DNA of 64,000 bases from an uncultured Candidatus Saccharibacteria bacterium (GCA_964516975.1 CAZFAS010000001.1:18823-82822); one strand, 5' to 3'; shown: positions 38,792 to 58,587, numbered from the stretch's first letter. The notes: generated by a model from the letters alone, not told the origin. Program-made: numbers and translations.

Positions 38792-39384
38792 AAAGGCCTC
38801 ATGATTTAGTTAAGAACTCACTGCAAAGAATATATCATCACGAGAATTTATGTCCAATTTTAAATTTCTAAATATATAAGTGTTGATAACTTTTTTCATA
38901 AAAATTTTAGAACTGTGTCAAAAAAAATTGAAGAGTGTAAAAGTGAAAAAACTTTTTTCTTTGAGTTGTAAAAATAGGGTATATATTTACTAAGAAATTC
39001 TTAAATATAAATAAATTCGGTTCTTAATCCGAGATGAGTGAGCGCACTTTGAGTTTCACAAATAAATATAAATTCACTACCATAAGTCACATGCAGTTAT
39101 CGCTAAATAGTAAGGTTTATAAATGTTTATATATGTTATTTTTAGTAATTCTCGATTAAACTTTTGTGAAACAAGCTATATAAAATGCATTTGATTATAT
39201 TTCGAGAAATAATTCTTAGATAATACAGTGAATTTTCCATTATGAATTATTTGCCTTTGAAAGTATTTTGTATTGTATTTTTTTGAAACAGAAATACCAC
39301 AAATTATTTTCTATAAAATTTAAAAAATTGATTCAAAATATGCTTACAAATCTGACCAAATTTAATTTACCCTCAGAGTGAATA

Positions 39385-42300
39385 TTGATACCATTTGTGT
39401 GTATGTTTTTTCGATTTTTACCAAGGCAAATTTTAAAAATATCTTCAGTATATTTTACTGTTGTTCTTGTACTTATTTTTGCAATTGCTCCACGCATAAT
39501 TTTTGCTGACGAAGCAAGTAATGTTGATGCCATTGTGACAACCGAAGTGAGTAGTGTGGTTACTTCGACCGTTCCTGAACAGCAAGGCGCGCAACAGGAG
39601 AACTCTATTGTAGATCCAGTTGTTAGTACATCAGTACCAGAGGTTGTTGGCAATGATTCAGCTACCACGTCAAATGTCGAATCAAGTTATGAGGCTGGAG
39701 ATGTTATAGCAACTTCCACATCGGAAATAGCTGTTTCAACAACAACGGATTCAACATTGCCAAATAATGTGGTGATTGATGAATCGGGATCGTCGACTCC
39801 TTCTTTCGCTGCTACTTCTACTCCGAACTCTAGTGATTCTTCTTTTGTACCGAGTCTAGATGCTGTAAGTGGCGCTTCTAGTAGTAGTGTGCCAACATCA
39901 ACGGTTCCAAGTATTGTCGAGCAAGACACACAGACAGGAAAGACTTTGACGATCTCAGCAACCCCCGAGCAAGAGCTTATTACTCCTATGGTTAATATTC
40001 CCGTAAAAACGGAGATACCAGAGATCTTTAAAATTGGTCAGGAAAACCAAATACAAGTGAAGTGGCAGAACAACGGAAATCAGGAAATGCAGTTTACTGC
40101 TCTTGATGAAGACGGAAATGGATACATTGATCATATTGAGTGGATCGTACCTCATTTATCTACGCAGACGTTTTCTATTATTTACATTTCGCATGCGCTC
40201 CAGCTTGATCCAAACAAGAATGTCATTGCTGATATTTATGACCAAGTAAAGGATAAAGATGGTACCTATGCTTATCTATCTGATAGTCAATTCGTTCGTG
40301 CGACATTTGAACATATTTTGGATAATACGAAAGATATAACATTGTATGCTAAGCCACATAATGAAGGATCATCAGTAAAGATTGAAGTATATACTTTGAA
40401 TGGTGATTTAGTTGCTGTATTCGATGCAATAGACCATGAAGGTAAGTATCGAGTATTGCTTACTAACTTGTCTACATCTACTGACACTTTTGATTTGAAA
40501 ATAATAGGCGATGTTGATATTGATCAAATTATTGATCCGGCACCAGCAACAGCTTATTGGGTTGGCGGAACGGGTAATTGGTCAGATGCTGCAAATCACT
40601 GGGCATCTTCATCTGGCGGAGCTCCTGGCGCCGGTAACGCTCCTGATGCTACGAGTAATGTAGTTTTCGATGCTTCATCAGGAGGAGCTGCGACAGTTGT
40701 CACCATTGATTCAAGCGCTACTGTTGGTTCAATGACAATTAGTGCATATACAGGCACCATTATTCAAAATGCAAATCTCACGATAACAAATTCTGGCGGT
40801 CAATCTGGAAATTATGTACAAAATTCCGCAGTTACATTTACTGCAACAAATCCTGGAACAAATACACTTACTGTCACGGGAAGTTTTGCAATTAATGCGG
40901 GAACTTTTAGAAGATACACAGGATTAGGAATTAGTTCAGATCCTTTTCTTATTTATGATGTGTATGGTTTGCAAGGAATGAAGACTTCAACTTCAAGTGC
41001 ATACAAATTAAATAATAATATTAATGCTGCTACAACTACTGGGTGGAATTCTGGTGCAGGTTTTGATCCAATCGGAAATGGATTCCCAAATACCTTCGGA
41101 GGAATTTTCGACGGTAATGGTTACACGATTAGTAACTTATTTATTAGTACTACCACATCAAGTTATGTTGGTTTGTTTGGATACATTACAAATGTCGTTA
41201 AGAATGTAAATCTTTCGAATGTTACTATCGCAGCAACAAGTACAAATGGAACAGCAGGATCAACAGGTTCATCAGGTTCTGATGGATCTGCAACATCAGC
41301 TGGAACAGCAGGTGGTGCTGGTACGGCAGGAAGTACTTTATATTTAGGAGGTATTGCTGGTTATAACACTGGAACAATTACAAATGTAAGTGTGACAGGA
41401 AGTATTACCGGTGCAGGTGGTGCTGGTGGAAATGGTGGAAATGGTGGTAATGGAGGAAATATAAATAGCGGATCAAACACTGCCGGGGCTGGAGGAAATG
41501 CGGTAAGTAATGCGGCTGCTACTGGTGGACTCGCATATGTGGGAGGAATTGTCGGGTATTCACAACAAGGAAGTATTACGACTGCCACAAGTTCGGCAAC
41601 TATTTTAGGTACTGGTGGTGCTGGCGGATCGAGTGGTAATGCAGGTAACGGTGGAAACGGATCAGTTGGGGGTGTTGGAACAGGTATTGGAGGAGCCGGT
41701 GGTGCTGCGGGAGTTGCGGGTGCAGGAAACATTGCATATGTTGGCGGACTTGTTGGCTGGGTTCAGACTGGGACGATCACTTCATCATTTGCAACTGGAA
41801 ATGTTACAGCAAAGGGAGGTGCGGGAGGTAATGCTGGTACATCGGGAACTGGAGGAAATGCTGGTGTTGGCGCTGGAGGTGCAAATATTGGTGGTATTGG
41901 AGGCGCAGGTGCGGCAGGAGGTGCAGCTGGCGCATCATATGCAGGTGGACTTGTTGGAAACAATTTAGGGACAATTCAAAATGGAAGCTTTGCAACTGGT
42001 AATGTTCAATCGATTGCAGGAACACCAGGTACAGCATCGGCAGGAAGTGCAAGTGGCGCCTCAGCTTCAGGTTCAATAGCAACTGCTGCATCAAGTGCAA
42101 CCGCAACAGGAGGAGCCGGAGGTGCAGGAGCAATAGCATATGCTGGAGGACTTGTTGCTCAAAATGGTACATCTGGAATCATAACCGGTACATCTACCAT
42201 TGTGTATGCAAGTGGAACAGTCACAGCCACTGGATCAGCGGGAAGAAATGGTGCTGCTGGTGGTGCCGGTGGTAGTGCTAGTTTAACTACATCAGGTACT

Positions 42301-45300
42301 GGAGGTGTTGGGGGTGCTGCCGGAAATGGTGGTGCGGGGGGTGCTGTATACGCAGGTGGATTAGTTGGTTTGAATGCGGGGACTGTAATTTCCGCAAGTT
42401 CAAATACTGGGCTCATCACAGTAAATGGCGGTAATGGTGGAATCGGTGGTACAGGTGGTGCAGGAGGAGCGAAGGGTTCAGCTGGTACATCAGGTGCAGG
42501 TGGCGCTTCTGGTACAGGAGGATCTGCAGCTGTTACTTCAACATACGCTGGTGGATTAGTTGGTAGTAACACTGGATTTATACAAACGGCATCTTCGACA
42601 AATGCAGTTAGTGCACAAGCTGGTACTGGCGGTGCCGGGGGAACTGGAGTGGCAGCACAAACAGGACTTGCAGGTCTTGCCGGGGGAACTGGAGGAGCTG
42701 CTGGCATACTATATATAGGAGGTATTGCGGGTAACAGTACCCTTTCAATAGCTGATAGTTATCACACTACTGGTGCTATAAATGGAACTGCGGGAAATGG
42801 AGGTGCAGCAGGAGCAGGTGGTGCCGGTGGTACATGGTCAGGAGGAACTGCTGGTGCTGCAGGAACTGCAATTATCGGAGGTGTTGTATATGCGGGAGGT
42901 ATTGTTGGAAATAATACAGGTACAACAATCATTAATTCGTATTCGACATCTGATGTTACCGGAACATCAGGAACTGGTGGTGCGGGAGCAAACGGTGGTG
43001 ATGGTTATACATTTACAGCAGGTGTGGCTGGAATTGGTGGAAGTGTCGGTTTAACAGGAGGTATTGCTTATGTTGGTGGTGTCGTTGGATATTTGAACAA
43101 TGGTGAAATTACAAATTCATATTCAACTGGGATAATTACAGCAGACGGTGGTAACGGAGGAAATGGTGGTAACGGAGGAAATGGTGGCGCTGGGTCAGCA
43201 GGAACTGGAGGAGCGGGCGGTGCTGGTGCAGCGGGTGGTGCGGGAGGAGCTGCATTCGCTGGTGGAGTTGCAGGAAATATAGTACTTGGTGTTGTTACAA
43301 ATAGTTACAATACTGGAAATGTAATTGCAATTGCAGGAAATGGCGGTAATGCAGGAAATGGCGGTAACGGAGGAAATGGTGGTACAAATTTTGCAGGTGG
43401 AACTGGAACTGTTGCCGGTGCTGGTGGCGCTGGTGCAGTTGCAACAGCAGGAGGTGTTGCTGGACAAAGTGCGGGAGTAATTCAAGCAAATTCGTATTCA
43501 ACAGGAAATGTAACTGCAACTGCAGGTAGTGCACAAGTTGGCGGAACTGGTGGTAACGGAGGTGCGTCAGCTGGAACATTTGTTGGTGCTGGAGCTGTAG
43601 GTGGTGCAGGTGGAGCGGGTGGCGCTGGTGCAATTGCATATGCTGCAGGTATTGTTGGAAACAACACAAACACTATCCAGAATTCTTATGCGGGTGGGAC
43701 AATTTTGGCGACAGCATCAGCGGGTGCAAATGGTGGCGCTGCTGGTCTTGGTGGAAGTAATGCAACAGGAGGTTCATCAAGTACTGGAGCAGCAGGTGCA
43801 AACGGTGGAGCAGGTGGAGCAGGTGCAGTTGCATACGCAGGAGGTATAGCAGGATTAAATACAGCAATAATTACAAATACATATATTGAATCTGGATCAG
43901 CAACTGCCGCTGGAGGTGCAGGTGGTGCTGGTAATACTGGAGGTGCAGGTGGAGTAGCAGGCACAGGTGCATTGGGCGCTACTGGAGGTACAGGTGGAGC
44001 AGGTGGAGCAGGAGCAATCGGTTACGCTGGTGGATTAATTGCATTTAATTCTGCAGGAACAATAAATAACTCTCATGCATTTATACTTGCAAGTTCAACT
44101 TCGGGCTCTTCGGGTAATGGTGGAACTGGTGGTGCTGGTGGTTATGCAAGCACTGGCGGAACAGGTGGTATTGGTGTTGTGGGTGCTGCAAGTTATGCAG
44201 GAGGTGCTGTTGGAATGAATACTGGAATAATAAGCAATGTATATGCAACAGGAAATGTGATTGCACGTGGTGGTGCAGGAAGCTCAAATGGTGGTGGTGG
44301 AAACGGTGGAACAAGTAGTACTTCAGCAGGAGGTGCGGGAGGTGCAGCTGGTGCTGCTACAACGAACCTCGGAGGAGTAGCATACGCTGGTGGACTTGTT
44401 GGTTTTAATTCAACAAACGGAATTATTCAAAGCGCTTCACATGCAAGTGGCAATGCGACTTCAACAGGTGGTGTTGGTGCAAGTGGTTTAACAGGCGGAT
44501 CTGGTGGTACGTCAACAGGTGCATTTACTGGAGGTGTCGGCATTGCTGGAGGTCCAGGACTTTCAGGTGGAGTTGCAGCTTCAGGGGGTTTAGTTGGATT
44601 TAATTCTGGATCTGTCGCTTCAGATTCTTATGCAAGTGGAAGTGTTTATGCAAATGGCGGTGCTGGTGGTAATGGGGGTAATGGAGGTAATGGAGGCGCG
44701 AGTGGAGCAGGTGTTGTTGGAGTTGCAGGAGTTGGTGGTGGAGTGGGACTTGCTGGAGGTGCTGCATACGCAGGAGGAGTGATTGGAAACGATAGTGTAC
44801 TTGGTACAACAATTTCAATTCCGAATACTACTGGAAGTGTGAATTCACTTGGTGGCACTGGTGGCAACGGCGGAAACGGAGGTAATGGAGGTAATGGTGG
44901 AAGTTCAACTGGTGCAATAGGAGGAGCGGGAGGAATAGCAGGTGCAGGAGGAAACGGTGGACTTGCAGCAAGTGGAGGAATCATGGGACTAAATGTTGGA
45001 GTAATCCATGATGTCACGTATACGATTACATCAATTAATGCACTTGGCGGTGTTGCTGGAACGGGTGGTACAGGAGGAAATGCTGGTGCATCAGGAAATG
45101 TTTCTGGTTCAGCGGGAGCAACTGCGGGTGCTGGTGGTGCTGGTGGAATTGGAGGTGCAACATACATTGGCGGACTTGTCGGAGACAACTCTGGTGTAAT
45201 TGTTGATTCAATAGTAATTGGAAGTTTAACTGCAACTGGTAGAAATGGTGGAAATGGTGGCGTGGGAGGTACTGGTGGAGATGGAACGTTAGGTACTGGT

Positions 45301-48300
45301 GGACATGCTGGTGGTGTGGGTGGTGCTGGTGGTAACGGTTCATCTGGTGGAGCTGTGTACATTGGAGGACTTGTTGGACAGGGAAACGGTAATATTCAAA
45401 AGTCGCAAGCAGTTGGTGGAACAATAACAGTAACTTCAGGTGGAAATGGCGGTACTGGTGGTGCGGGTGCTGCAGGAGGTGCAGGAGGTACTGGTAGTGG
45501 AAAAAATGGAGTAGGTGGAGCAGGTGGTACTGGAGGAGTTGTAGGACCTGTATACGCTGGCGGTGCTATAGGATTCAATTCATTAGTATCAGTATTAATT
45601 GATACAGTTTATTCAACGAATAATGTGTCCGTTACTGCAGGTTCAGGAGGAAATGGGGGTGCAGGTGTTGCTGGGGTAAACGGAGCAGCAGGAAGTGCAG
45701 GTGGTGGAGGGGGTGGAGGAGGTGCAGTTGGTGTTGCGGTATATGGTGGAGGACTTGAAGGATATAACTCTGGTGCTGCACAAAATATTTTTAATTCATA
45801 TGCAACTGGCAATGTTACTGTAAATGGTGGCAATGGTGGTACAGGGCAAGTTGGAGGTACAGGAGGTGCAGCAATAAGTGCAGTTGTTGGAGGTGCAGGA
45901 GGTGCAGGTGGAATTGGAGGTGCAGGAGGTTTTGCATATGGTGGTGGACTTGTTGGGTTTACAAATGCATTAGTATCAATCGCATCAACATCTGCAACAG
46001 GTAATGTCACTGTTATTGCAGGTAATGGCGGTAATGCTGGCAATGGCGGAGCAGGTGCACTTGGCGGAGCAGGTCAGGTTGGAGGTGCTGGCGGAGCAGG
46101 AGGTGCTGCTGGACTAGGTGGAGCGTCATACACCGGAGGTTTGGTTGGTCTCGTAACTTCAGGTGACATTGTAAATTCATTTTCAACTGGAATAATTCAA
46201 GGTACATCAGGTAATGGAGGTAACTCTGGCGCAGGAGGTGCTGGAGGTGCGGGAGGTTCAGGAGTGACAGGAACAATTGGTACCGCAGGAACACTTGGAG
46301 CAAATGGAGGTGTAAATTACACAGGAGGTTTAGTTGGTGATAACACCTCATCAATTGTTAGTTCATATCATAGTGGTGGTGCTATCTCTGCTACAAGTGG
46401 TAATGGTGGTAATGGTGGAGCGGGCGGTAATGGTGGAGCATCTGGAAGTATTACGAACGGTACAGCTGTTGCTGGCGGTGCAGGTGCAAACGGTGGAGTT
46501 GGCGGTGCGGTTTCTGTTGGAGGTCTTGTGGGAAGAAATGGAGTAACAGCATTATCTGCAGTTATTACGAGCTCGTATGCGACAACAAATGTTACAGCTC
46601 TTGGTGGTAACGGAGGAAATGGAGGAGTTGGAGGAAATGGAGGTGATGGATCTTCAGGTACAAATCATATTGGTGGAGTTGGCGGTGCGGGAGGAGCAGG
46701 AGGTGCTGCAGCAACTGGTCTTGCAGGATCAGTACAGGCTGGTGGACTTGTTGGTCAAAATATTTTAGGAACAATTACTGGTAGTTATGCTCAGACTGGT
46801 ACAGTAACAGCGACAGGAGGTACTGGCGGTTCAGCTGCACTAGGTGGAACTGGTGGAGTGGGAACAGGTACGGCAGTATATGGTGCTGGTGGAGCAGGTG
46901 CTGCAGGAGGCGCAGGTGGATCTGTATATGCAGGTGGACTTGTTGGTTATACAACTGGTGTTGTTGAGGGCGGATCATATTCTAAAACGACACTTAATCT
47001 ATTTGGTGGATCTGGTGCAAATGGTACAAATGGTATTACTGCAAGTGCAAATACCGGAGCTGCGGGAAGTGTTCCTGGTGGTGGAGGTGCATCTGGAATA
47101 ATTTATGCTGGTGGACTTATTGGATACACAACTTCTGATGTTGTTTCTTCTTATGCAAGCTATGATGCTGGCACGGGAAAAGGCAATATCACAGTAACTG
47201 GAGGAACTCCAGGTAATGGTGGTAATGCAGGAAGTGGTGGATCTGGTCTTGTTGCAGGTGGAGCAGGTGGTGCGGGAGCAGTAGCTACGCTTGGAACAGG
47301 AGGTGCATCATCAGGAGCATTTGTTGGAGGACTTCTTGGATTTAGCTCAGGAGTAATAACATCATCATACGCAGAATCTCTCAGTATTTCTGGAACTGAG
47401 CAGACTGGTGGAACAGGAGGTAATGGGGGAAATGGAGGTGCGGGTGTTGGAGCAAATAACGGAGGTGTTGGTGCAATTGGTGGTGCAGGTGGAGCTGGAG
47501 GTGTGAGAGGTTTCGGTGGACTTGTTGGTGATTACTTACCAACACTTGGTTCAATACAGGGTAATTCATATTCAACTGTAACAATTTCAGTAGTTAGCGG
47601 TAATGGTGGTAATGGAGGTAATGGTGGTAATGGAGGAACATCTGGTGCGAGTCAATCAAGTGGAACTGCTGCTGTTGCGGGTGTTGGTGGTGCAGGTGGA
47701 GCAGGAGCGGCTGCATATGGTGGTGGGCTCGTAGGACGTATCACAGGTACCACACAGGTTATACAAGTTGCAAATTCATACGCAAGTGGAAACGTTTCAG
47801 TTACAAGTGGTAATGGTGGTAATGGTGGTACAGGTGGAAATGGAGGAAATGGATCAACAGGAAGTTCAACTCATGCTGGAGCAGCTGGTGGACTTGGTGG
47901 AGTCGCGGGTGTTGGCGGTGAGGCAGATGCTGGCGGTCTTGTTGGGCTCAGTAACTTAACAACAGGATCCGTAGATTATATTTCTGTATATGCAACGGGT
48001 TATGCAAGTTCAACAGCAGGAAACGGTGGGACACAAGGGACTGGCGGTAATGGTGGTGCATCTGCTAGTGGTGCAGCAGGTGGAGCTGGAGGTGGAGCAG
48101 TGTTAACTCCACCAGCTGGAGGTGCGGCTTATGCAGGAGGGCTTATAGGCATAAATAGAATTACAACAACGCCAGGACAAAGTGACATAATAAATTCATA
48201 TTCAACTGGTTTAGTAAGTGCAAAGGGAGGAGTAGGTTCTATTGGGAATCAAGGAGGTAATGGTGGTACTGGAGGAACAATCGGTGGTGCAGGTGGAGCT

Positions 48301-51300: not shown

Positions 51301-54300
51301 ACTGCAACTGCTGGAAATGGTCAGGCAACAATAACCTTTACTCCGCCTGTTTCAAATGGAGGTTCAACGATTTTGTATTACACAGTTTCGTCTAATACGG
51401 GAGGATTTACAGTATATGCTGGGTCATCACCTGTCGTTGTAACTGGTCTCTCAAATGGCACACCATATACATTTACCGTGACAGCAACAAATGCAGTTGG
51501 GACAAGTTCAGCATCAGCAACTACAAATTCTGTCACACCAGCAACAGTTCCGGATGCACCAACAATTGGCACTGCAACTGCTGGAAATGGTCAGGCAACA
51601 ATCACATTTACTCCACCAGTATCAAACGGAGGAAGTGCTATTACGTATTACACAGTCACATCAAACTCAGGCGGATTCACTGCGTATGGTGGTTCATCAC
51701 CAATTACAATCACAGGTCTCTCAAATGGAACACCATATACATTTACCGTGACAGCAACAAATGCAGTTGGGACAAGTACAGCATCATCTGCAAGTAATTC
51801 AATTACACCTGCCACCGTCCCAGACGCACCAACTTCTGTTACGGCAGTTCGAGGAAATGGTCAGGCAACAATCACATTTACTCCACCAGTATCAAACGGG
51901 GGGAGTGCTATTACGTATTACACTGTGTACTCAAACACGGGTGGATTCACCGCAACTGGTGGAAGTTCGCCAATTACGATTACAGGATTAAATAATGGAA
52001 CGGCATATACATTTACTGTAAAAGCTACAAATGCGATTGGTACAAGTTCTGCTTCTGCAACAAGTAATTCCGTGACTCCGGCAACAGTTCCGGATGCACC
52101 GACAGGTGTAACAGCAGTTCGAGGAAATGGCGAAGCTACGATTTCATTTAGTGCACCTTCATCTGATGGAGGTTCATCAATTATTAGATATACGGTTACT
52201 TCAAGCATTGGTGGGTTAACTGCAACTGGTGCAAGTTCGCCAATTACAATCACAGGTCTTTCTAATGGGACTTCGTATACGTTTACTGTTACTGCCACAA
52301 ATGCGATTGGCACAAGCACAGCATCATCTGCAAGTAATTCGATTTCACCTGCTACTGTTCCAGATGCACCAATTATAGGAACTGCAACTGCAGGAAATGG
52401 CGAAGCTACGGTTACATTTTCGCCACCAGTAAATGATGGATATTCATCAATCCTGTATTACACTGTTTCGTCTAATACTGGTGGATTTACAGTATATGCT
52501 GGGTCATCACCTGTCGTTGTAACTGGTCTCTCAAATGGCACAACATATACATTTACTGTAACTGCCACAAATGCAGTTGGTACAAGTACAGCGTCAAGTC
52601 CGACAAATTCTGTGATGCCAGTTACTGTACCAAGTGCTCCAACATCTGTTAGTGCTACAGCCGGAAATGGTGAAGCTACGATTTCATTCACAGCATCTGC
52701 ATCTGATGGTGGTAGTGCGATAACAACGTATACTGTCACTTCTAATACTGGTGGATTCACTGCAACCGGTGGAAGTTCACCAATTACAGTAACTGGCCTC
52801 TCAAATGGCACAACATATACATTTACCGTGACAGCAAGTAATGCGTACGGAACAAGTTCTGCCTCCGCAACTACAAACTCTGTTACACCTGCCACCGTCC
52901 CAGACGCACCAACTTCTGTTACGGCAGTTCGAGGAAATGGTCAGGCAACAATCACATTTACTCCACCAGTATCAAACGGGGGGAGTGCTATTACGTATTA
53001 CACTGTGTACTCAAACACGGGTGGATTCACCGCAACTGGTGGAAGTTCGCCAATTACGATTACAGGATTAAATAATGGAACGGCATATACATTTACTGTA
53101 AAAGCTACAAATGCGATTGGTACAAGTTCTGCTTCTGCAACAAGTAATTCCGTGACTCCAGCAACAGTTCCAGATGCACCAACAATCGGCACTGCAACTG
53201 CTGGAAATGGTCAGGCGACAATCACATTTACTCCACCATCAAATACTGGAGGCTCGTCTATTTCATACTATACAGTATCGTCTAATGTCGGTAATTTTGT
53301 CGCTTATAGTGCAAGTTCACCAGTAACTATTTCAGGGCTTTCGAATGGCACAACATATACGTTTACTGTAACTGCCACAAATGCAGTTGGGACAAGTACA
53401 GCGTCAAGTCCGACAAATTCTGTAGTGCCTGCTACGGTTCCTGATGCCCCAACTTCTGTTACAGCAGTACGAGGTGATGGTCAGGCAATAATCTCATTTA
53501 CTCCGCCTGTTTCAAACGGAGGTAGTACGATTACAACATATACAGTTGCATCAAATATTGGCGGATTTGTTGCTACGGGTGGAAGTTCTCCAATCATAAT
53601 TACCGGTCTTTCCAATGGGACTTCATACACATTTACTGTTACAGCAAAAAATAGTGTTGGTACAAGTGCGAGTTCAACACCATCAAATTCTATAACACCT
53701 GCTTCTACGCCAGGATCACCGACAGGTGTAACAGCAGTTCGAGGAAATGGTGAAGCTACGATTTCATTTAGTGCACCTTCATCTGATGGAGGTAGTGCTA
53801 TTACATATTACACAGTCACATCAAACACGGGTGGATTCACTGCGTATGGTGGTTCATCACCAATTACAATCACAGGTCTTTCAAATGGAACACCATATAC
53901 GTTTACCGTGACAGCAACAAATGCAGTTGGTACAAGTTCTGCTTCTGCAACAAGTAATTCCGTGACTCCAGCAACAGTTCCGGATGCACCAACTTCTGTT
54001 ACTGCCGTACGTGGTGATGGTGAGGCAACAATCACATTTACTCCATCAGTATCAAACGGAGGGAGTGCTATTACGTATTACACTGTGTACTCAAACACGG
54101 GTGGATTCACCGCAACTGGTGGAAGTTCGCCAATTACGATTACAGGATTAAATAATGGAACGGCATATACATTTACTGTAAAAGCTACAAATGCGATTGG
54201 TACAAGTACTTCATCTGGAACAAGCAATGCTGTAACTCCGGCAGGTGCACCTGGAACACCAACAGGTGTAACTGCCGTACGTGGTGATGGTCAAGCAACA

Positions 54301-55959
54301 ATCTCATTTACTCCGCCTGTTTCAAACGGAGGCAGTGCGATTACTACATATACCGTTACTTCTAATATTGGTGGATTCACAGCAACGGGGGGTTCATCAC
54401 CAATTACAATTACAGGATTAAATAATGGAACAACGTATACATTTACGGTGACTGCAAGTAATGCAGTTGGTACAAGTACTGCATCGAGTGCTTCAAATTC
54501 TGTAACTCCAGCAACAGCACCAGATGCACCCACAAATGTCGCTGCAAGTATCGGAGATACAAGTGCAACAGTGACATGGTCAACACCAGCATTTAATGGA
54601 GGATCTGCAATTACTCTATATACAGTAACTGCAAGTAGTGGGGGCCATACTGCCACGAGCACAGGAAATTCAGCAGTGGTTCTTGGTCTCACGAATGGCT
54701 TTTCGTATACATTTACTGTAACTGCAAGTAATGCAGTTGGAACAAGCACATCATCAGGAACAAGTAATGCTATTACTCCAGCAACTGTACCAGGTGCACC
54801 GACAAATCTTGCAGCTACTGTTCAGGATAGCAGTATTGATTTGTCATGGACCGCACCAGCATCAAATGGCGGTACTCCAATAACCGATTATGTTATCGAA
54901 TACAAACTTTCAAGTGGAGGCACATGGGCAACATTTAGTGATGGTGTAAGTACAAGCCCATTTGTTACAGTCACAAGTCTTTCAAATGATAATTCGTACG
55001 ATTTTAGAGTTGTAGCAAAAAATTTGATTGGACTTGGTGCATCTTCTACTCCAGTAAGCGCAACTCCAGGTGCACCAGCACAGGTTTTGATACAAGGATT
55101 TTCAAATACGACTGTTCCAACAATTGGAACAAATGTTCGAATAACAAATGAAGGTTCAGTTGCGTATGAATATCAATATACGTGGTGCATTACAGATTCA
55201 AGTAGTAATCAATGTGGTGGAGGAGATGATATTTTTAGTTCAACAGCTGCAAAACTAGTTCAACCAGCTGAAAACTTCGATACCACATTAAATTCTACTG
55301 TTCCAACTCCTGGAAATTATTGGTTTCATATAAATGTAAATTTTGGATCAGATTCATCACAGGCTAGTCAATCATTTACAGCTATTCCATCTGGACCTGC
55401 TACAGCTCCTGGCGCACCGACAATTGGAACCGCAACAGCAGGTGATGGTCAAGCAGTTGTAACATTTAGTGCGCCAATAAGTAATGGTGGGTCAGCAATT
55501 ACGTATTACACAGTAACATCAGATATTGGGAATTTTGTAGTATATGGCGCTTCATCTCCAATAACAATTACCGGTCTTTCTAATGGAACAGCGTATACAT
55601 TTACTGTTACCGCTACAAATGCAGTTGGTACAAGTACTGCATCGAGTGTTTCAAACTCTGTAACTCCAGCTGCTGCTTCAAATGGTAATACTGGCGGTGG
55701 TAGTTCAGGTGGTGGTGGAGGGGGAGGGGGCGGAGGTTCATCCACACCAGTGCCAATTTCCAATGTTCCAGGCACCTATAAGCTTTCAGATTTAAATAAT
55801 GATGGAAAAGTAAATTCAGTCGATTTCTCTATTTTACTTGCATTCTGGAAGACAAAAGGTCCATTTAAAAATCCAAAAGTCGATATAAATAAAGATGGAA
55901 AAGTTGACTCTATTGATTTTTCAATCATGTTGTATGATTGGGATAAAAGAAATTTCTAA
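39385..55959 (+). CDS. giant secreted surface protein (5,524 aa): signal/anchor, Ser/Thr-rich linker, ~190-aa beta domain, dozens of GLUG-type Gly-rich repeats, 16 FN3 domains, poly-Gly linker, C-terminal dockerin
   Basis: Uninterrupted 16,575-nt ORF. N-terminus MFFRFLPRQILKISSVYFTVVLVLIFAIAPRIIFA|DEA. Recurrent [AY][AV]GG[LI]VGxNxGxIxNSY[AS]TGxV...GGxGGxGGxGG units (GLUG motif as in IgA-protease-like surface proteins). 16 units of about 90 aa match FN3 (PDAPTxVTAxxGNGQATITFTPPxSNGGSxITxYTV...GLxNGTxYTFTVxATNAxGTS). Tail DLNNDGKVNSVDFSILLAFW...DINKDGKVDSIDFSIMLYDW. The track start is a TTG at 39385; the first ATG is at 39403. Confidence 0.85.
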   Translation: MIPFVCMFFRFLPRQILKISSVYFTVVLVLIFAIAPRIIFADEASNVDAIVTTEVSSVVTSTVPEQQGAQQENSIVDPVVSTSVPEVVGNDSATTSNVESSYEAGDVIATSTSEIAVSTTTDSTLPNNVVIDESGSSTPSFAATSTPNSSDSSFVPSLDAVSGASSSSVPTSTVPSIVEQDTQTGKTLTISATPEQELITPMVNIPVKTEIPEIFKIGQENQIQVKWQNNGNQEMQFTALDEDGNGYIDHIEWIVPHLSTQTFSIIYISHALQLDPNKNVIADIYDQVKDKDGTYAYLSDSQFVRATFEHILDNTKDITLYAKPHNEGSSVKIEVYTLNGDLVAVFDAIDHEGKYRVLLTNLSTSTDTFDLKIIGDVDIDQIIDPAPATAYWVGGTGNWSDAANHWASSSGGAPGAGNAPDATSNVVFDASSGGAATVVTIDSSATVGSMTISAYTGTIIQNANLTITNSGGQSGNYVQNSAVTFTATNPGTNTLTVTGSFAINAGTFRRYTGLGISSDPFLIYDVYGLQGMKTSTSSAYKLNNNINAATTTGWNSGAGFDPIGNGFPNTFGGIFDGNGYTISNLFISTTTSSYVGLFGYITNVVKNVNLSNVTIAATSTNGTAGSTGSSGSDGSATSAGTAGGAGTAGSTLYLGGIAGYNTGTITNVSVTGSITGAGGAGGNGGNGGNGGNINSGSNTAGAGGNAVSNAAATGGLAYVGGIVGYSQQGSITTATSSATILGTGGAGGSSGNAGNGGNGSVGGVGTGIGGAGGAAGVAGAGNIAYVGGLVGWVQTGTITSSFATGNVTAKGGAGGNAGTSGTGGNAGVGAGGANIGGIGGAGAAGGAAGASYAGGLVGNNLGTIQNGSFATGNVQSIAGTPGTASAGSASGASASGSIATAASSATATGGAGGAGAIAYAGGLVAQNGTSGIITGTSTIVYASGTVTATGSAGRNGAAGGAGGSASLTTSGTGGVGGAAGNGGAGGAVYAGGLVGLNAGTVISASSNTGLITVNGGNGGIGGTGGAGGAKGSAGTSGAGGASGTGGSAAVTSTYAGGLVGSNTGFIQTASSTNAVSAQAGTGGAGGTGVAAQTGLAGLAGGTGGAAGILYIGGIAGNSTLSIADSYHTTGAINGTAGNGGAAGAGGAGGTWSGGTAGAAGTAIIGGVVYAGGIVGNNTGTTIINSYSTSDVTGTSGTGGAGANGGDGYTFTAGVAGIGGSVGLTGGIAYVGGVVGYLNNGEITNSYSTGIITADGGNGGNGGNGGNGGAGSAGTGGAGGAGAAGGAGGAAFAGGVAGNIVLGVVTNSYNTGNVIAIAGNGGNAGNGGNGGNGGTNFAGGTGTVAGAGGAGAVATAGGVAGQSAGVIQANSYSTGNVTATAGSAQVGGTGGNGGASAGTFVGAGAVGGAGGAGGAGAIAYAAGIVGNNTNTIQNSYAGGTILATASAGANGGAAGLGGSNATGGSSSTGAAGANGGAGGAGAVAYAGGIAGLNTAIITNTYIESGSATAAGGAGGAGNTGGAGGVAGTGALGATGGTGGAGGAGAIGYAGGLIAFNSAGTINNSHAFILASSTSGSSGNGGTGGAGGYASTGGTGGIGVVGAASYAGGAVGMNTGIISNVYATGNVIARGGAGSSNGGGGNGGTSSTSAGGAGGAAGAATTNLGGVAYAGGLVGFNSTNGIIQSASHASGNATSTGGVGASGLTGGSGGTSTGAFTGGVGIAGGPGLSGGVAASGGLVGFNSGSVASDSYASGSVYANGGAGGNGGNGGNGGASGAGVVGVAGVGGGVGLAGGAAYAGGVIGNDSVLGTTISIPNTTGSVNSLGGTGGNGGNGGNGGNGGSSTGAIGGAGGIAGAGGNGGLAASGGIMGLNVGVIHDVTYTITSINALGGVAGTGGTGGNAGASGNVSGSAGATAGAGGAGGIGGATYIGGLVGDNSGVIVDSIVIGSLTATGRNGGNGGVGGTGGDGTLGTGGHAGGVGGAGGNGSSGGAVYIGGLVGQGNGNIQKSQAVGGTITVTSGGNGGTGGAGAAGGAGGTGSGKNGVGGAGGTGGVVGPVYAGGAIGFNSLVSVLIDTVYSTNNVSVTAGSGGNGGAGVAGVNGAAGSAGGGGGGGGAVGVAVYGGGLEGYNSGAAQNIFNSYATGNVTVNGGNGGTGQVGGTGGAAISAVVGGAGGAGGIGGAGGFAYGGGLVGFTNALVSIASTSATGNVTVIAGNGGNAGNGGAGALGGAGQVGGAGGAGGAAGLGGASYTGGLVGLVTSGDIVNSFSTGIIQGTSGNGGNSGAGGAGGAGGSGVTGTIGTAGTLGANGGVNYTGGLVGDNTSSIVSSYHSGGAISATSGNGGNGGAGGNGGASGSITNGTAVAGGAGANGGVGGAVSVGGLVGRNGVTALSAVITSSYATTNVTALGGNGGNGGVGGNGGDGSSGTNHIGGVGGAGGAGGAAATGLAGSVQAGGLVGQNILGTITGSYAQTGTVTATGGTGGSAALGGTGGVGTGTAVYGAGGAGAAGGAGGSVYAGGLVGYTTGVVEGGSYSKTTLNLFGGSGANGTNGITASANTGAAGSVPGGGGASGIIYAGGLIGYTTSDVVSSYASYDAGTGKGNITVTGGTPGNGGNAGSGGSGLVAGGAGGAGAVATLGTGGASSGAFVGGLLGFSSGVITSSYAESLSISGTEQTGGTGGNGGNGGAGVGANNGGVGAIGGAGGAGGVRGFGGLVGDYLPTLGSIQGNSYSTVTISVVSGNGGNGGNGGNGGTSGASQSSGTAAVAGVGGAGGAGAAAYGGGLVGRITGTTQVIQVANSYASGNVSVTSGNGGNGGTGGNGGNGSTGSSTHAGAAGGLGGVAGVGGEADAGGLVGLSNLTTGSVDYISVYATGYASSTAGNGGTQGTGGNGGASASGAAGGAGGGAVLTPPAGGAAYAGGLIGINRITTTPGQSDIINSYSTGLVSAKGGVGSIGNQGGNGGTGGTIGGAGGAGGASGIGGEADAGGLVGLSSVTTGFVHYQNSFATNGTVTAIGGASGAGGSAGSSTAGGSGAGGTTGASGASAAGGAAYAGGLIAQLNATASNNQLVTASYSTLSVSATGGASGNGANGVIGGAGGTASIGGVGGSGGVSGAGGAAYAGGLIGTNGTAALAGGGVIESGSYATGDVNSISGVVGSAGTGGAGGASNSGTATLAAGGGTVGTTGAGGAAYAGGLVGINAATGVILNSYAAGSVTSLARNGGQGGTGGNGGDASLSTGTGGPGTIGGAAGAGGDSYAGGLIGYNVNALNTVTTSYSTGTTISGTSGNGGQGGTGGNGGSAGIAAAGGAAGAGATAGAAGTLYVGGLIGRNDGTVLLYSYSTSNVVGVAGTGGAGGNGGNGANGAVGTSGNGGNGGVGGSATAGGAGGIAYIGGFVGRNETTRVIKDSYALGTVTASGGAGGAGGVGGNGGNGGNGASAGTGGTGGNAGASGAGTVGGVKYGGGFAGYNFGTISTVYSVGTVSVTGSNGGAAGNGGNAGNGGNGGASGAGGIGGNQGATSNAGNGGVLHAGGLIGYNFTAGVLSNSWTAGSVVTFGGAGGAAGIRGTAGTGGDGGTLAGGAGGASVVGSAGGAGGASIAGGLIGSNITTGSFSNSYASTTVTMTGGNGADGGVGGSGGNGGTGGSGGSGNGGAGQAGSLGGAGGNGGAVTGGGLVGDNTGAITNAYALGNIIASAGIPGAGGIGGAGGNGGAAGGGSVGSNGSGANGGGGGAGANALVGGLLGSHATSLASSTYSVGVPTATKSSGGVGGAGGAAGTGGSGGSAGSTGAAGSSAALQYAGGIVGNPVSGTWASSYWDVTTSGKTDGAGNATTPTNTVGKTTTQMKQQATFVGWDFTIFPVWDIVAASTYPYFNYQTSPDAPTNVTAIAGNGQATITFTPPANMGGGQILSYTVTSSPGGFTATAGASPIVVTGLTNGVVYTFTVTATNANGTSVSSATSNAVTPATVPDAPTIGTATAGNGQATITFTPPVSNGGSTILYYTVSSNTGGFTVYAGSSPVVVTGLSNGTPYTFTVTATNAVGTSSASATTNSVTPATVPDAPTIGTATAGNGQATITFTPPVSNGGSAITYYTVTSNSGGFTAYGGSSPITITGLSNGTPYTFTVTATNAVGTSTASSASNSITPATVPDAPTSVTAVRGNGQATITFTPPVSNGGSAITYYTVYSNTGGFTATGGSSPITITGLNNGTAYTFTVKATNAIGTSSASATSNSVTPATVPDAPTGVTAVRGNGEATISFSAPSSDGGSSIIRYTVTSSIGGLTATGASSPITITGLSNGTSYTFTVTATNAIGTSTASSASNSISPATVPDAPIIGTATAGNGEATVTFSPPVNDGYSSILYYTVSSNTGGFTVYAGSSPVVVTGLSNGTTYTFTVTATNAVGTSTASSPTNSVMPVTVPSAPTSVSATAGNGEATISFTASASDGGSAITTYTVTSNTGGFTATGGSSPITVTGLSNGTTYTFTVTASNAYGTSSASATTNSVTPATVPDAPTSVTAVRGNGQATITFTPPVSNGGSAITYYTVYSNTGGFTATGGSSPITITGLNNGTAYTFTVKATNAIGTSSASATSNSVTPATVPDAPTIGTATAGNGQATITFTPPSNTGGSSISYYTVSSNVGNFVAYSASSPVTISGLSNGTTYTFTVTATNAVGTSTASSPTNSVVPATVPDAPTSVTAVRGDGQAIISFTPPVSNGGSTITTYTVASNIGGFVATGGSSPIIITGLSNGTSYTFTVTAKNSVGTSASSTPSNSITPASTPGSPTGVTAVRGNGEATISFSAPSSDGGSAITYYTVTSNTGGFTAYGGSSPITITGLSNGTPYTFTVTATNAVGTSSASATSNSVTPATVPDAPTSVTAVRGDGEATITFTPSVSNGGSAITYYTVYSNTGGFTATGGSSPITITGLNNGTAYTFTVKATNAIGTSTSSGTSNAVTPAGAPGTPTGVTAVRGDGQATISFTPPVSNGGSAITTYTVTSNIGGFTATGGSSPITITGLNNGTTYTFTVTASNAVGTSTASSASNSVTPATAPDAPTNVAASIGDTSATVTWSTPAFNGGSAITLYTVTASSGGHTATSTGNSAVVLGLTNGFSYTFTVTASNAVGTSTSSGTSNAITPATVPGAPTNLAATVQDSSIDLSWTAPASNGGTPITDYVIEYKLSSGGTWATFSDGVSTSPFVTVTSLSNDNSYDFRVVAKNLIGLGASSTPVSATPGAPAQVLIQGFSNTTVPTIGTNVRITNEGSVAYEYQYTWCITDSSSNQCGGGDDIFSSTAAKLVQPAENFDTTLNSTVPTPGNYWFHINVNFGSDSSQASQSFTAIPSGPATAPGAPTIGTATAGDGQAVVTFSAPISNGGSAITYYTVTSDIGNFVVYGASSPITITGLSNGTAYTFTVTATNAVGTSTASSVSNSVTPAAASNGNTGGGSSGGGGGGGGGGSSTPVPISNVPGTYKLSDLNNDGKVNSVDFSILLAFWKTKGPFKNPKVDINKDGKVDSIDFSIMLYDWDKRNF
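40540..50800 (+). repeat. GLUG-motif / glycine-rich repeat region of the giant protein (roughly 50 degenerate units of about 60-70 aa)
   Basis: Periodic YAGGLVG...NSYSTGNV...GGNGGNGGNGG pattern at the protein level. The DNA is dominated by GGT/GGA/GCA/GCT codons. Confidence 0.7.
51804..52079 (+). repeat. 276-bp segment identical to 52884-53159 (copy 1)
   Basis: Base-for-base identity by inspection of the sequence lines. The offset is exactly 1,080 bp, which equals four FN3 units. Confidence 0.85.
52884..53159 (+). repeat. 276-bp segment identical to 51804-52079 (copy 2); a third, ~190-bp identical copy lies at about 54025-54213
   Basis: Same as above. The ORF track also shows duplicated antisense ORFs with identical translations at 51918-52319 and 52998-53192. 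Confidence 0.85.
55746..55956 (+). other. dockerin module (two Ca-binding loop-helix segments) at the C-terminus of the giant protein
   Basis: DLNNDGKVNSVDFSILLAFW and DINKDGKVDSIDFSIMLYDW match the DxNxDGxVNxxD-F/helix dockerin repeat. A GGGSSGGGGGGGGGGSS linker precedes it. Confidence 0.75.
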
Positions 55960-55960
55960 G

Positions 55961-56845
55961 ATGAGAAGTTTATTACAAAAATTAATTTTACTGAGCGTCT
56001 TAACTTATGTTGTACCAACGTATGCATATGGTTCTACTATTTTTCTTACAACAGAATCAAAGAAAATTTCTGTGGGTGATACAGTCGTTGTTTCGGTAAT
56101 GTTAAACACAGAAGACGTGCTCACAAATGCGGTTGAAGGGTCAATCATTTTTGACCCAAAGGACGTAAATTATACAGTGGATGTAAGTGATGCGGGATCA
56201 AAACTTTCAATTTGGCCTACAAAACCAACATATAATCAAGTTGGCCATATCATTACGTTTGTTGGCGGAGAGCCACTCGGCTTTACGTCAAAGTCTGCGA
56301 AACTTTTTGATATTATTATCACTCCACAAAAAGCTGGGAATATAACTTTAAAGCCAAGTAATTTTTTAAGTTATAGAAATGACGGAAAGGGAACAGTCGA
56401 TAAATCATCTGTAAGTAGCTTCACGTTATCTGTTGAACAATTGGGTAGTGGTGAGCAAAATCATAATGAGTGGAAAGATGTTGTGGCGGCAGATAAGACA
56501 TCACCTGAGGAATTTATAATTGAAAGTGGCAGCGATCCCTCTGTTTTTGATGGAAAAAAATTTATAACTTTTCATACTAAAGACCTTGAGTCAGGGATCG
56601 ATCATTATGAAGTCATCGAAGGTGATCTACCGGCTGTAAGATCTGATGGGCAATATGTATTACTAAATCAGAATGCAAATCAAAAAATTACAGTCATTGC
56701 ATATGATAAAGCGGGAAATAACAGAGTAGTAGTTTTTAATTACGAAAATATGCAAACAAGTAGCAAGCAAATCTTTTTTGGTGTATTTCTTGCAATACTT
56801 TTAATGGGAATAATTGTATTATATAGAAAGCAGAAAAATAATTAG
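55961..56845 (+). CDS. cohesin-domain protein 1: signal peptide, cohesin-like beta-sandwich, second beta domain, C-terminal TM anchor
   Basis: The ATG at 55961 is 2 nt after the giant-gene stop (the track start at 55895 overlaps the giant gene). Signal MRSLLQKLILLSVLTYVVPTYAYG. Domain ...ISVGDTVVVSVMLNTEDVLTNAVEGSIIFDPKDVNYTVDVSDAGSKL...LFDIIITPQKAGNITL. C-terminal TM FFGVFLAILLMGIIVLYRKQKNN. Confidence 0.65.
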   Translation: MRSLLQKLILLSVLTYVVPTYAYGSTIFLTTESKKISVGDTVVVSVMLNTEDVLTNAVEGSIIFDPKDVNYTVDVSDAGSKLSIWPTKPTYNQVGHIITFVGGEPLGFTSKSAKLFDIIITPQKAGNITLKPSNFLSYRNDGKGTVDKSSVSSFTLSVEQLGSGEQNHNEWKDVVAADKTSPEEFIIESGSDPSVFDGKKFITFHTKDLESGIDHYEVIEGDLPAVRSDGQYVLLNQNANQKITVIAYDKAGNNRVVVFNYENMQTSSKQIFFGVFLAILLMGIIVLYRKQKNN

Positions 56846-56850
56846 TTCAT

Positions 56851-58587
56851 ATGATTCGTTCACAGTACTCATATCGTTTCTTTCAAAGAATTATTTATAT
56901 AGCTTTATTGCTTTGTGTTTTTATACCACAAAGTAATGTTTTTTCAGCGACTTTATCTATTATCCCGAGCCTGTCACAAGTAAATGCAGGTAATATCATC
57001 AACGTGTCAGTTGCAGTAAACACACAAGGTGTTGCTGTAAATAATAGTGAGGCAATAATTCAGTTCCCTCCAGATTTACTCCAAGTAGTTTCTGTGGACA
57101 ATAGTAGCTCTATATTTTCACTTTGGGTTGAAAACCCATCTTTCTCAAACTCTACTGGACAAGTTTCATTTAATGGCGGCGCTCCTAATCCTGGCTACAC
57201 AGGTAATAATGGTAGAATTTTATCAGTTACTTTTTTAGCAAAAAAAGCAGGAACCGCAACAATTCTTATTGGCGATTCATCAGTGAGAGCAAATGATGGA
57301 TTAGGTACTGATGTTTTGTCGACTAAATCTTCAGCAACTATTAACATTAGTAATTCTGCAGTACCAGTTTCCCAGCCTGAAGTTGCAGTACCAAGTCAAC
57401 CAAAGAATGATCAGGCGCTTATTGTTACGTCCTCAACTCATCCACAACAAAAAACATGGTACAACCTAAAGACAGCACTTCTTTCATGGAATAACCCAAG
57501 TGATGCCACTGCAATAAAGACTTTTTTTGGCTCTCATGCTGATTCTGATACGAGTGTTCTTTATACACCAGCAATTTCTAGTAAAAAAATTGAATCAATT
57601 GATGATGGAATTTGGTACTTCCATGTAAATTATAAGACTGCTCGTGGCTGGTCACCAATTACTCACTACAGACTCCAGGTTGACTCAACAAGTCCAAAAG
57701 ATTTTTCAATGCAACTTAAGAAAAGTGATTTTGGAGGTGCAACTGTGGTTCTTCAGGCTTCAGATGCTTTGTCAGGCGTCGATCACTTTACTATATCTGT
57801 TGATAATGAGAAGCCGATCGTTGTACCTGCAGATCAGAGCGGTTCTGCATCAACGTATCTTCCAATCAATTCGACAGGTACACATACTGTTGTAGGAAGG
57901 GTATACGATAGTGCTGGAAATGTTTCTGAAACTTCTTCAAATATTGAAACAAGTGTCCCGGCCTCACTTACAATCGACTCATATCCATCTGCAATTAAGG
58001 TAAATGAAGTCATCGACTTAACTGGCACTTCGCCATATCCAAATGCAACTCTTTCAGTATCAATTCAAAGGGGAGCTGATTCCATACAAACCTTTAATGT
58101 AACGTCAGATGGTTCATCAAAGTATCACTTTGTAAGTAGACCAATTGAACAAACAGGTGCGTATACAGTATGGGTCAATCTAATACAAGATGACGGAAGT
58201 ATTATTTTGACATCAAGAAAGGTAAAAATTGAGGTTTCAAAACCTATTATTCTTCAGATTGGATCATATACGACAACACTTATGACAGTTCTTACACCAC
58301 TTCTCGCACTTATTATTCTATTTATACTTCTTATATATTATGGCTGGCATAGGTTCTTTATCTTGAGAAAGAAAATGAGGGGAGACCATAAACTTATTGA
58401 GGAAAAAGTTCATCGATCACTTAAAATGCTATCTGAAGAGGTCACGAAGCAACTTTCGGCTGTTGAGAAAACAAGTTCTCGCAGAAAAGTATCTGCTGAT
58501 GAGAAAAAAGCCATCCTTGAACTTAAGAGTGCAATTGCAGATATTGATTCTTATATCGAAAAACAGATAGATTCATTAGAAAAATAA
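56851..58587 (+). CDS. cohesin-domain protein 2: signal peptide, cohesin-like domain, Ig-like domains, C-terminal TM plus cytoplasmic coiled-coil tail
   Basis: Signal MIRSQ...LLLCVFIPQSNVFSA. Cohesin pattern TLSIIPSLSQVNAGNIINVSVAVNTQGVAVNNSEAIIQFPPDLLQVVSVDNSS...GRILSVTFLAKKAGTATILIGDSSVRAND. TM LMTVLTPLLALIILFILLIYYGW, followed by a charged helical tail. Confidence 0.7.
   Translation: MIRSQYSYRFFQRIIYIALLLCVFIPQSNVFSATLSIIPSLSQVNAGNIINVSVAVNTQGVAVNNSEAIIQFPPDLLQVVSVDNSSSIFSLWVENPSFSNSTGQVSFNGGAPNPGYTGNNGRILSVTFLAKKAGTATILIGDSSVRANDGLGTDVLSTKSSATINISNSAVPVSQPEVAVPSQPKNDQALIVTSSTHPQQKTWYNLKTALLSWNNPSDATAIKTFFGSHADSDTSVLYTPAISSKKIESIDDGIWYFHVNYKTARGWSPITHYRLQVDSTSPKDFSMQLKKSDFGGATVVLQASDALSGVDHFTISVDNEKPIVVPADQSGSASTYLPINSTGTHTVVGRVYDSAGNVSETSSNIETSVPASLTIDSYPSAIKVNEVIDLTGTSPYPNATLSVSIQRGADSIQTFNVTSDGSSKYHFVSRPIEQTGAYTVWVNLIQDDGSIILTSRKVKIEVSKPIILQIGSYTTTLMTVLTPLLALIILFILLIYYGWHRFFILRKKMRGDHKLIEEKVHRSLKMLSEEVTKQLSAVEKTSSRRKVSADEKKAILELKSAIADIDSYIEKQIDSLEK

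Follow-up and report, generated by a model that had tools for sequence, protein, structure and literature searches.

A candidate cohesin-dockerin cassette that may tether variable surface proteins to membrane-anchored stalks in Patescibacteria

Introduction

Anchoring of cellulosomes through type-I and type-II cohesin-dockerin pairs is known from C. thermocellum (anchoring scaffoldins SdbA, OlpA and OlpC; PDB 1ohz, 3ul4 and 4dh2). Cohesin and dockerin modules are also found outside cellulosomes, as in a cohesin of A. fulgidus (2xdh), in the cohesin-FN3 (fibronectin type III) modules of GH84C and GH33 of C. perfringens (2w1n and 2vo8) and in anaerobic methanotrophic (ANME) archaea (PMC9012536). 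These modules are scattered on enzymes, toxins and multi-domain proteins, their partners are usually unknown or unlinked, and for many of them no partner has been demonstrated (PMC9012536, citing Peer et al. 2009). Here we describe three adjacent genes, D, B and C, on a stretch of DNA of 64,000 nt, read on one strand and called the window below (GCA_964516975.1, CAZFAS010000001.1:18823-82822). D encodes a predicted secreted giant that ends in a dockerin, and B and C encode two membrane-anchored proteins with predicted cohesin domains. The D-B-C cassette would work like cellulosome anchoring, with the dockerin of D held by the cohesins of B and C. Statements on the gene neighbourhood refer to this window.

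Patescibacteria, or the candidate phyla radiation (CPR), account for a large part of the diversity of bacteria, and most of them appear to live attached to other cells. To our knowledge, the surface molecules that mediate attachment in uncultured Parcubacteria-type lineages are largely unknown. Two types of dockerin protein have been described in bacteria of comparable lifestyle. The giant dockerin-type proteins of the ultra-small or episymbiotic Omnitrophota carry Ca2+ modules that are thought to serve attachment, as D may do (bioRxiv 10.1101/2023.11.21.568195). SEML1_0315 of Saccharibacteria is an essential dockerin-domain envelope protein in an episymbiont (PMC10633639); it was considered as a member of the D-B-C family and rejected, as its neighbours are a hydrolase and a tRNA gene. 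We found the cassette described nowhere in our search of the literature on dockerins together with Patescibacteria, CPR or Parcubacteria, which is not proof of its absence there.

Results

A dockerin-tailed giant is encoded next to two membrane proteins with a predicted cohesin fold

D (39385..55959), B (55961..56845) and C (56851..58587) lie end to end on the plus strand, and they account for the one dockerin and the two cohesin-like open reading frames (ORFs) of the whole window. A first-pass annotation of the DNA had read the end of D as a dockerin. The last 99 aa of D matched Dockerin_1 (PF00404) with 52.1 bits (E 7.5e-14; cutoff 22.9), and both Ca-loop plus helix segments quoted in that annotation were recovered (DLNNDGKVNSVDFSILLAFW / DINKDGKVDSIDFSIMLYDW). 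The domain (55789..55956, plus strand) is of type I, with two near-identical repeats formed by a tandem duplication, DLNNDGKVNSVD-FSILLAFW and DINKDGKVDSID-FSIMLYDW, 31 residues apart. It thus shows the duplicated segment of ~22 residues that characterises dockerins, a 12-residue Ca2+ loop (D-x-N/D-x-D-G-x5-D) followed by a helix, and it is predicted to bind Ca2+. PF00404 also matched 40 of the 43 orthologues of D whose sequence is complete. When the last 80 aa of D served as query in an exhaustive search, 3,463 proteins were returned at E<=1e-3, and among the best of these were proteins of 72-2,177 aa with a single, C-terminal dockerin match. In the viral contig collection this dockerin had no relative, so that an origin in phages and a use by phages are ruled out as far as that collection goes.

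Gene B encodes a short protein of 294 aa with a signal peptide (55961-56032), the predicted cohesin (56033-56440), an Ig-like domain (56492-56746), a transmembrane (TM) helix (56762-56824) and a basic tail (RKQKNN; 56825-56842). Gene C encodes a longer protein of 578 aa with a signal peptide (56851-56946), the predicted cohesin (56947-57354), a linker, three beta domains (57415-58242), a TM helix (58267-58344) and a helical cytoplasmic tail of ~80 aa (58345-58584). Each protein therefore starts with a hydrophobic leader and has a single TM helix towards its C-terminus, and the earlier description of two genes with a signal peptide, Ig-like domains, a C-terminal TM helix and a basic or helical tail was borne out. 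The leader and the C-terminal TM helix, with positive residues after it, were present in 66-67 of 67-69 orthologues. Because this topology is conserved, the cohesins are predicted to lie outside the cell, at the membrane-distal tip of each protein.

The cohesin assignment of B and C draws on predicted folds, on cohesin matches of the family profile and on orthologues that match the Pfam Cohesin family (PF00963). A search of the two window proteins with PF00963, a check proposed in the first-pass annotation, found no match at E<=1. AlphaFold2 models built from 42-43 orthologues were confident (mean predicted local distance difference test scores, pLDDT, of 90.8 for B and 86.1 for C). In both, a leader helix precedes a nine-strand beta domain; B then has one and C three more beta domains before the TM helix, which in C runs on into a long cytoplasmic helix. 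In these models the nine-strand domain has the cohesin fold, a beta-sandwich of the jelly-roll type, as the annotation had foreseen. In a Foldseek search of the PDB with the B model, cohesins were 49 of the top 50 matches, and the predicted cohesin domains of both proteins matched solved cohesins almost exclusively; one non-cohesin adhesin domain (CLIPPER, 9ifr) was also among the structural matches. A profile of the B and C cohesin domains searched against PDB sequences matched best the ScaB cohesins of R. flavefaciens (E 4.9e-4), whereas a profile of full-length C gave only marginal Ig/FN3-type matches and phmmer searches of the PDB sequences with B and C gave nothing relevant. PF00963 was matched at E<=0.01 by 14 of 43 C orthologues (best 4.2e-8). 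Two B orthologues scored 20.3 and 23.3 bits, just under the Pfam cutoff of 24.1, and proteins of two related loci exceeded it, at 37.9 bits (the C-like protein of L148) and 30.1 bits (a C-like protein of L156). The earlier call of the beta domains as cohesins is therefore supported by folds, family profile and orthologues, although not by the PF00963 search of the window proteins themselves. Profile-profile comparison of B and C with hhalign (probability 100%, E 2.5e-41) indicates that they are paralogues with a common N-terminal domain and a common 'SGIDHY' Ig-like domain. Domains 2 and 4 of C had no significant Pfam match. A protein identical to B bears the JGI/IMG name '2-phospho-L-lactate guanylyltransferase (CobY/MobA/RfbA family)', a likely mis-annotation, since that name is incompatible with an architecture of signal peptide, cohesin, Ig and TM helix.

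The three genes form a conserved cassette

Hundreds of full-length homologues of C were found in Patescibacteria, in bins labelled Wolfe-, Niyogi-, Taylor-, Nomura-, Zambryski-, Wildermuth-, Komeili-, Doudna-, Magasanik- and Falkowbacteria, and a few of them are named 'cohesin domain-containing protein' by NCBI. For B the homologues numbered more than 205, and a precomputed Pfam domain was attached to none of those listed. The scan of GTDB species representatives, one genome per species, identified 285 with a relative of C. The ORFs of the best 80 of these 285 loci were searched with hidden Markov models (HMMs) for B, C and the dockerin. Seven of the 80 loci were cut by a contig end, leaving 73 informative ones, and D-B-C stood on one strand with spacers of a few nt in 66 (66/80 of all, 66/73 of the informative loci). 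The dockerin was the extreme C-terminus of D in every such case. At one of the 80 loci there was an apparent B-C fusion ORF of 865 aa (L072:6790-9387).

The search from the dockerin side covered the best 80 of at least 513 metagenome matches. D-B-C was present at 47 of these loci, D-B followed by a contig end at 8, and 5 were cut right after D. No B lay directly downstream at the other 20, of which 10 were inspected. Eight of the ten held a variant cassette (L138, L143, L147, L148, L150, L158, L160 and L163; e.g. L148:4255-12155) in which a ~640-aa D with Big_6/Big_13 domains and a dockerin is followed by an Hsp20 gene and then by a gene for a ~510-aa C-like cohesin protein, the one noted above as passing the PF00963 cutoff. 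At the 3' end of the variant cassette there is an ORF of ~1,200 aa with a weak BclA_C-like end, and in L148 an ABC transporter lies upstream. The remaining two were L164, the only one of the ten with no cohesin gene nearby, and L156, where a 289-aa dockerin protein is followed by five tandem cohesin-like genes (L156:1119-7982). The latter is an expansion on the anchor side, not on the cargo side. Two cohesin anchors for one dockerin had struck the first-pass annotation as unusual; the pair is present and is no peculiarity of this genome, being conserved as a rule across a large family.

Many of the metagenome-assembled genomes with a cassette (L007-L086) are labelled 'uncultured Candidatus Saccharibacteria' or 'Gammaproteobacteria', labels that look generic or wrong. 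Gene content and homologues point to Parcubacteria/Paceibacteria-type Patescibacteria as the source of these genomes.

The dockerin and both cohesins change together

Covariation within the cassette was assessed from domain-wise distance matrices over 69 triplets, and a cruder correlation between dockerin and B scores from HMMs was set aside. Mean pairwise identity over the 69 loci was 63% for the dockerin, 54% for the C cohesin, 37% for the B cohesin and 30-45% for the other domains, so that no other module of the cassette is as well conserved as the dockerin. Dockerin distances correlated with those of the B cohesin and the C cohesin (r 0.57 and 0.59; Mantel p<=5e-4). They did not correlate with those of the other domains of C (r 0.11, 0.00 and 0.03), which correlated among themselves with r 0.73-0.80.

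Most of this signal came from one nine-locus clade. The main-type sequence VNSVDFSILL of dockerin repeat 1 is VNLVDFSIAA in this clade, and VDSVDFSILL of repeat 2 is VDLIDFSIMA, giving Ser to Leu and Leu-Leu to Ala-Ala or Met-Ala. These changes are accompanied by Gly to Ile at the homologous strand-6 position of both cohesins (SFVGGxP to xFSGIxP in B; SFNGGxPNPG to NFEGIxLNPG in C) and by INN to NAA on strand 3 of the C cohesin. The non-cohesin domains of the clade were not more divergent than those of any other clade, and the nearest relative of the clade by C backbone (L006) had the main type in all three modules. We take the changed dockerin positions, which are residue 11 of the loop and the first turn of the helix, to be the classical recognition positions. 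In solved complexes, cohesins bind dockerins with their 8-3-6-5 sheet, and in our models the changed cohesin residues appear to belong to strands 3 and 6 of this sheet. The reciprocal small-for-large swaps look compensatory.

The cargo is hypervariable and the window protein is its largest form

The complete D proteins ranged from 247 to 1,202 aa, apart from the 5,524 aa of the window protein, and most were short, with a median of about 500 aa. The window giant stands at the far end of the range of 247-5,524 aa that this hypervariable cargo gene spans. Length differed even between close relatives, with cargo proteins of 503 aa and at least 1,651 aa at loci whose C proteins were 72% identical. 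Three related giants (L007, L009 and L070) measured at least 3,123-3,330 aa, cut by the 10-kb flank, and had the same Gly-rich/GLUG and FN3 make-up as D of the window. Pfam matches in the 43 complete D proteins comprised Dockerin_1 in 40, MG2 in 20, Big_6 in 7 and fn3 in 2; a few small domains also occurred sporadically, each in no more than two of the proteins. Catalytic domains, whether of glycoside hydrolases, proteases or other enzymes, were not matched in any of the 43. Common to the D proteins were a pre-dockerin module, a poly-Gly linker and the dockerin.

The ORF of D in the window comprises 5,524 codons from TTG 39385. The more likely start is ATG 39403 (MFFRFLPRQILK...), because it results in a basic n-region, a hydrophobic core and the site IFA|DE. 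The predicted Sec signal peptide (MFFRFLPRQILK...APRIIFA|DE) would then span 39403..39507 on the plus strand, with cleavage after IFA. This leader is the sole hydrophobic segment of D (aa 15-42), so D appears to have no other membrane anchor of its own, and a hydrophobic leader was found in 32 of 39 complete D orthologues. It is followed by a Ser/Thr-rich stretch and by a 'head' domain of ~200 aa (aa 185-385; 39937..40539) with no recognisable family. Pfam gave no significant match for the head, and homology searches returned close patescibacterial fragments and generic GLUG proteins without a functional clue.

The next region is a Gly-rich array of GLUG motifs (41164..51003), about 3,200 aa long and with 35% Gly over aa 641-3560. 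It holds 33 motifs of the form [YFAV][AVIT]GG[LIVFA][VIALEM][GA] (e.g. YAGGLVG), spaced by a median of 65 aa, and Pfam Glug (PF07581) matched aa 601-900 with 39.5 bits (cutoff 20.5). GC skew reaches 0.35-0.45 and GC 0.49 at 42000-50000, confined to these Gly-rich repeats; the skew is due to GGN/GCN codon usage and unrelated to replication. An array of about 15 FN3 domains follows (51007..55068), with a 270-nt tandem period repeated 12.4 times and a YTFTV motif every 90 aa. As the 270-nt repeats are only 70% identical, they are not an assembly artefact. Pfam fn3 (PF00041) matched D with 460.5 bits over 16 stretches, i.e. at least 16 fn3 repeats, in agreement with the earlier reading of the giant as a GLUG/FN3 protein. 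Between the array and the last FN3 domain (55396..55680) lies the pre-dockerin module (55069..55395), 109 aa with two conserved Cys. Its consensus, ..PAQV.I....NV.ITNEG...EY.Y.WC....N.CGG.DD.F...AAK..., was derived from the 43 otherwise dissimilar D orthologues and it has no Pfam match. A Gly/Ser-rich, presumably flexible linker (55681..55788), kept as poly-Gly in orthologues, leads into the dockerin. All these features of D are on the plus strand.

Gene junctions and neighbourhood

The TAA stop of D (55957-55959) and the ATG of B (55961) are separated by a spacer of 1 nt, and the ATG of C (56851) lies 5 nt past the stop of B. Upstream of D there is an unusually long AT-rich non-coding stretch of ~850 nt (38534..39384, plus strand), the presumed promoter region. 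Promoter-like matches within it were at chance level, not commoner than in shuffled sequence. It contains a terminator-like hairpin of the preceding gene (38540-38561). A second such hairpin begins 13 nt past the stop of C (58600..58620, plus strand); it has a 9-bp stem with 6 GC pairs and a weak T-tail, a consensus match only, and is the probable 3' end of a D-B-C transcription unit.

The flanking genes are housekeeping genes (PGI, ROK kinase, NUDIX, Ddl, UvrABC, YchF and LeuRS) of a small genome with low GC (~0.38). The scan of the 20 other window ORFs detected neither a glycoside hydrolase nor a carbohydrate-binding module (CBM) nor a sortase, as the first-pass annotation had stated. Glycoside hydrolases and CBMs were likewise absent from the giant and from the 43 orthologous cargo proteins, and Pfam scans of D, B, C and the scanned window ORFs found no surface layer homology (SLH) domain or sortase. 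The exact C protein recurs with the same neighbours on several metagenome contigs, which break inside the repetitive D.

Two other loci of the window were recorded. A GC-rich island on the plus strand (13157-17952; GC 0.52-0.55 against ~0.38 elsewhere) codes for TerC, an unknown 397-aa protein, TerD, a weak TelA-like protein and a vWA-TerF-like protein; it is a tellurite/stress 'Ter' cluster, probably acquired horizontally. In an ORF beside Ddl (33485-34486, plus strand), a bacterial PH domain (bPH_2) occurs together with a Schlafen AlbA_2 domain; this ORF could be defence- or stress-related.

Discussion

We consider it likely that the cassette serves non-covalent tethering of a variable secreted surface protein, D, to membrane-anchored cohesin stalks, B and C. 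D would be exported by Sec and, once its leader is removed, would have no membrane anchor of its own. Its Ca2+-binding dockerin, carried on the Gly-rich flexible linker, would plug into the N-terminal cohesin of B, of C or of both. The paralogues B and C would both span the membrane as type-I proteins (N-out, C-in), and their Ig-like stalks would hold the cohesins at two lengths, with one extra domain in B and three in C; C would in addition place its ~80-aa helical tail in the cytoplasm. The outcome would be a hypervariable, non-enzymatic cargo tethered on the cell surface, which in the window is built of a head of no recognisable family, a GLUG/Gly-rich rod and 16 FN3 domains. We infer the dockerin-cohesin binding, the cleavage of the D leader and the stoichiometry of the assembly from the sequences. 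The first-pass annotation had proposed a dockerin giant displayed on two membrane cohesins outside any cellulosome, and the PF00404 match, the topology of B and C, the synteny and the type switch support that proposal.

The cargo would most likely act as an adhesin or attachment fibre, with a role in binding to a host or prey; its composition, its hypervariability and the lifestyle of cultivated relatives (e.g. PMC10633639) suggest this. The main functional rival keeps the tethering but makes the cargo part of a surface coat or of an S-layer-like envelope, a variable outer layer that B and C would hold off the membrane at two set distances. Most cargo proteins are indeed short, with MG2, Ig or FN3-type domains as their only building blocks. 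A structural element of the envelope should be found throughout a lineage, and the cassette is near-universal in the one sampled. Both stalk lengths are conserved, and the full-length C model resembles multi-Ig S-layer proteins such as 7ptp_A. However, cargo length and content differ between close relatives, which is more typical of adhesins or antigenically variable proteins, and a Gly-rich/FN3 rod of 5,524 aa is unlike known S-layer subunits, so that we regard a coat as unlikely. We think it very unlikely that the D leader stays uncleaved as a membrane anchor while the dockerin fixes the far end of the protein, to give a closed loop, an arch or a bridge to a neighbouring cell. The long hydrophobic stretch of about 20 residues (aa 22-41) would suit such an anchor, but an A-x-A-like site (IFA|DE) follows the hydrophobic core, and 7 of 39 complete orthologues have no detectable hydrophobic N-terminus at the ORF start used; an N-terminal anchor is therefore not a conserved requirement.

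How many of the two anchors receive the dockerin is a separate matter. We favour that B and C are both real partners, binding alternately (a dual binding mode) or together, because the dockerin is internally symmetric and because both of its repeats and both cohesins have changed together. We regard it as unlikely that only one of them is the receptor, with C otherwise acting as a stalk or in signalling through its cytoplasmic tail, or B as a chaperone-like or competing protein. Such a division would fit the different architectures of B and C, the 80-aa cytoplasmic tail found in C alone, the variant cassettes that retain only a C-like cohesin, the loci with C alone (counted below) and the far higher conservation of the C cohesin. 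It is harder to reconcile with the Gly to Ile change, which occurs in both cohesins in step with both dockerin repeats, with dockerin distances that correlate equally with both cohesin domains, and with the joint presence of B and C at nearly all informative loci. A bolder model, which we hold to be decidedly improbable, is that the dockerin binds both cohesins simultaneously, one per helix face, in a heterotrimeric clamp, the C helix reporting cargo engagement or load; in that case Parcubacteria-type Patescibacteria would have in the cassette their main, swappable organelle for recognising hosts, and the clades would use specific, mutually orthogonal dockerin/cohesin codes (Ser/Leu-Leu with Gly-Gly versus Leu/Ala-Ala with Gly-Ile). 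Finally, dockerin and cohesins might not bind at all: D, B and C would be co-regulated neighbours, the dockerin a Ca2+- or glycan-binding module and the cohesin folds beta-sandwich spacers. B and C of the window do fall below the Pfam cohesin threshold, the cohesin fold is a common jelly-roll that the CLIPPER adhesin domain also matches, and the many modules outside cellulosomes for which no partner has been demonstrated (PMC9012536) set a precedent. Against this, a cohesin gene adjoins the dockerin gene at nearly every locus from either search side, the dockerin is the best-conserved module of an otherwise hypervariable protein, its helices and the cohesin strands switch type in a coordinated manner, and the cohesin is always the membrane-distal domain. 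Absence of binding is therefore highly improbable.

Several points nevertheless weigh against the tethering model, among them the missing PF00963 match of the window proteins. C stood alone at 5 of the 73 informative loci (L064, L065, L075, L080 and L083), and one of the 80 loci had a degraded B, a truncated remnant (L043:9558-9965). The covariation rests mainly on one clade-level event, and the contrast among main-type loci is weak (r 0.35-0.40 versus 0.21-0.24). Block recombination could also produce a pattern that resembles coevolution, because the segment from the dockerin through gene B to the 5' end of gene C is one continuous piece of DNA. The strands were assigned by numbering the predicted strands in order, without superposition. 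Other dockerin proteins elsewhere in the genome could also use the same anchors.

D-B-C is probably a general way for ultra-small Patescibacteria to hang variable proteins on their surface. It offers a candidate attachment mechanism that is conserved, easily recognised and lineage-wide, in which a fixed pair of membrane stalks carries a rapidly diversifying secreted protein, and the conserved dockerin flags the cargo gene in any genome. The two natural dockerin/cohesin types provide testable specificity determinants in their reciprocal residue swaps, and such a compact natural cohesin-dockerin pair may be of use for protein engineering. Cohesin-dockerin biology would thereby extend to a minimal system that needs no scaffoldin and no enzymes and is anchored by a TM helix.

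Compared with known systems, the layout of C parallels that of TMEM132 and other eukaryotic cohesin-Ig-TM adhesion molecules (PMC6030884), which likewise combine a cohesin, tandem Ig-like domains, a TM helix and a cytoplasmic tail. TMEM132 is eukaryotic and has no known dockerin partner, and the likeness lies in the layout and the cohesin fold. The Omnitrophota giants, unlike D, have many internal dockerin and TSP3 repeats and TM anchors of their own, and SEML1_0315 is a stand-alone gene; neither has been reported with adjacent cohesin anchor genes. The cassette is not a cellulosome, whose defining features (scaffoldin, enzymes, CBM and an SLH or sortase anchor) are absent. Each anchor bears a single cohesin where a cellulosome has a multi-cohesin scaffoldin, the cargo carries neither glycoside hydrolases nor CBMs, and attachment is by one C-terminal TM helix in place of an SLH or sortase anchor. 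One cargo gene is joined to two paralogous anchors in a compact, operon-like unit. From the scattered modules of A. fulgidus, C. perfringens and ANME archaea the cassette differs as a fixed syntenic triad with a non-enzymatic cargo, kept across a phylum-level radiation. D-B-C nevertheless belongs with these non-cellulosomal cohesin-dockerin modules, to which it adds a lineage-wide triad, TM-anchored paralogous cohesins and a single hypervariable cargo.

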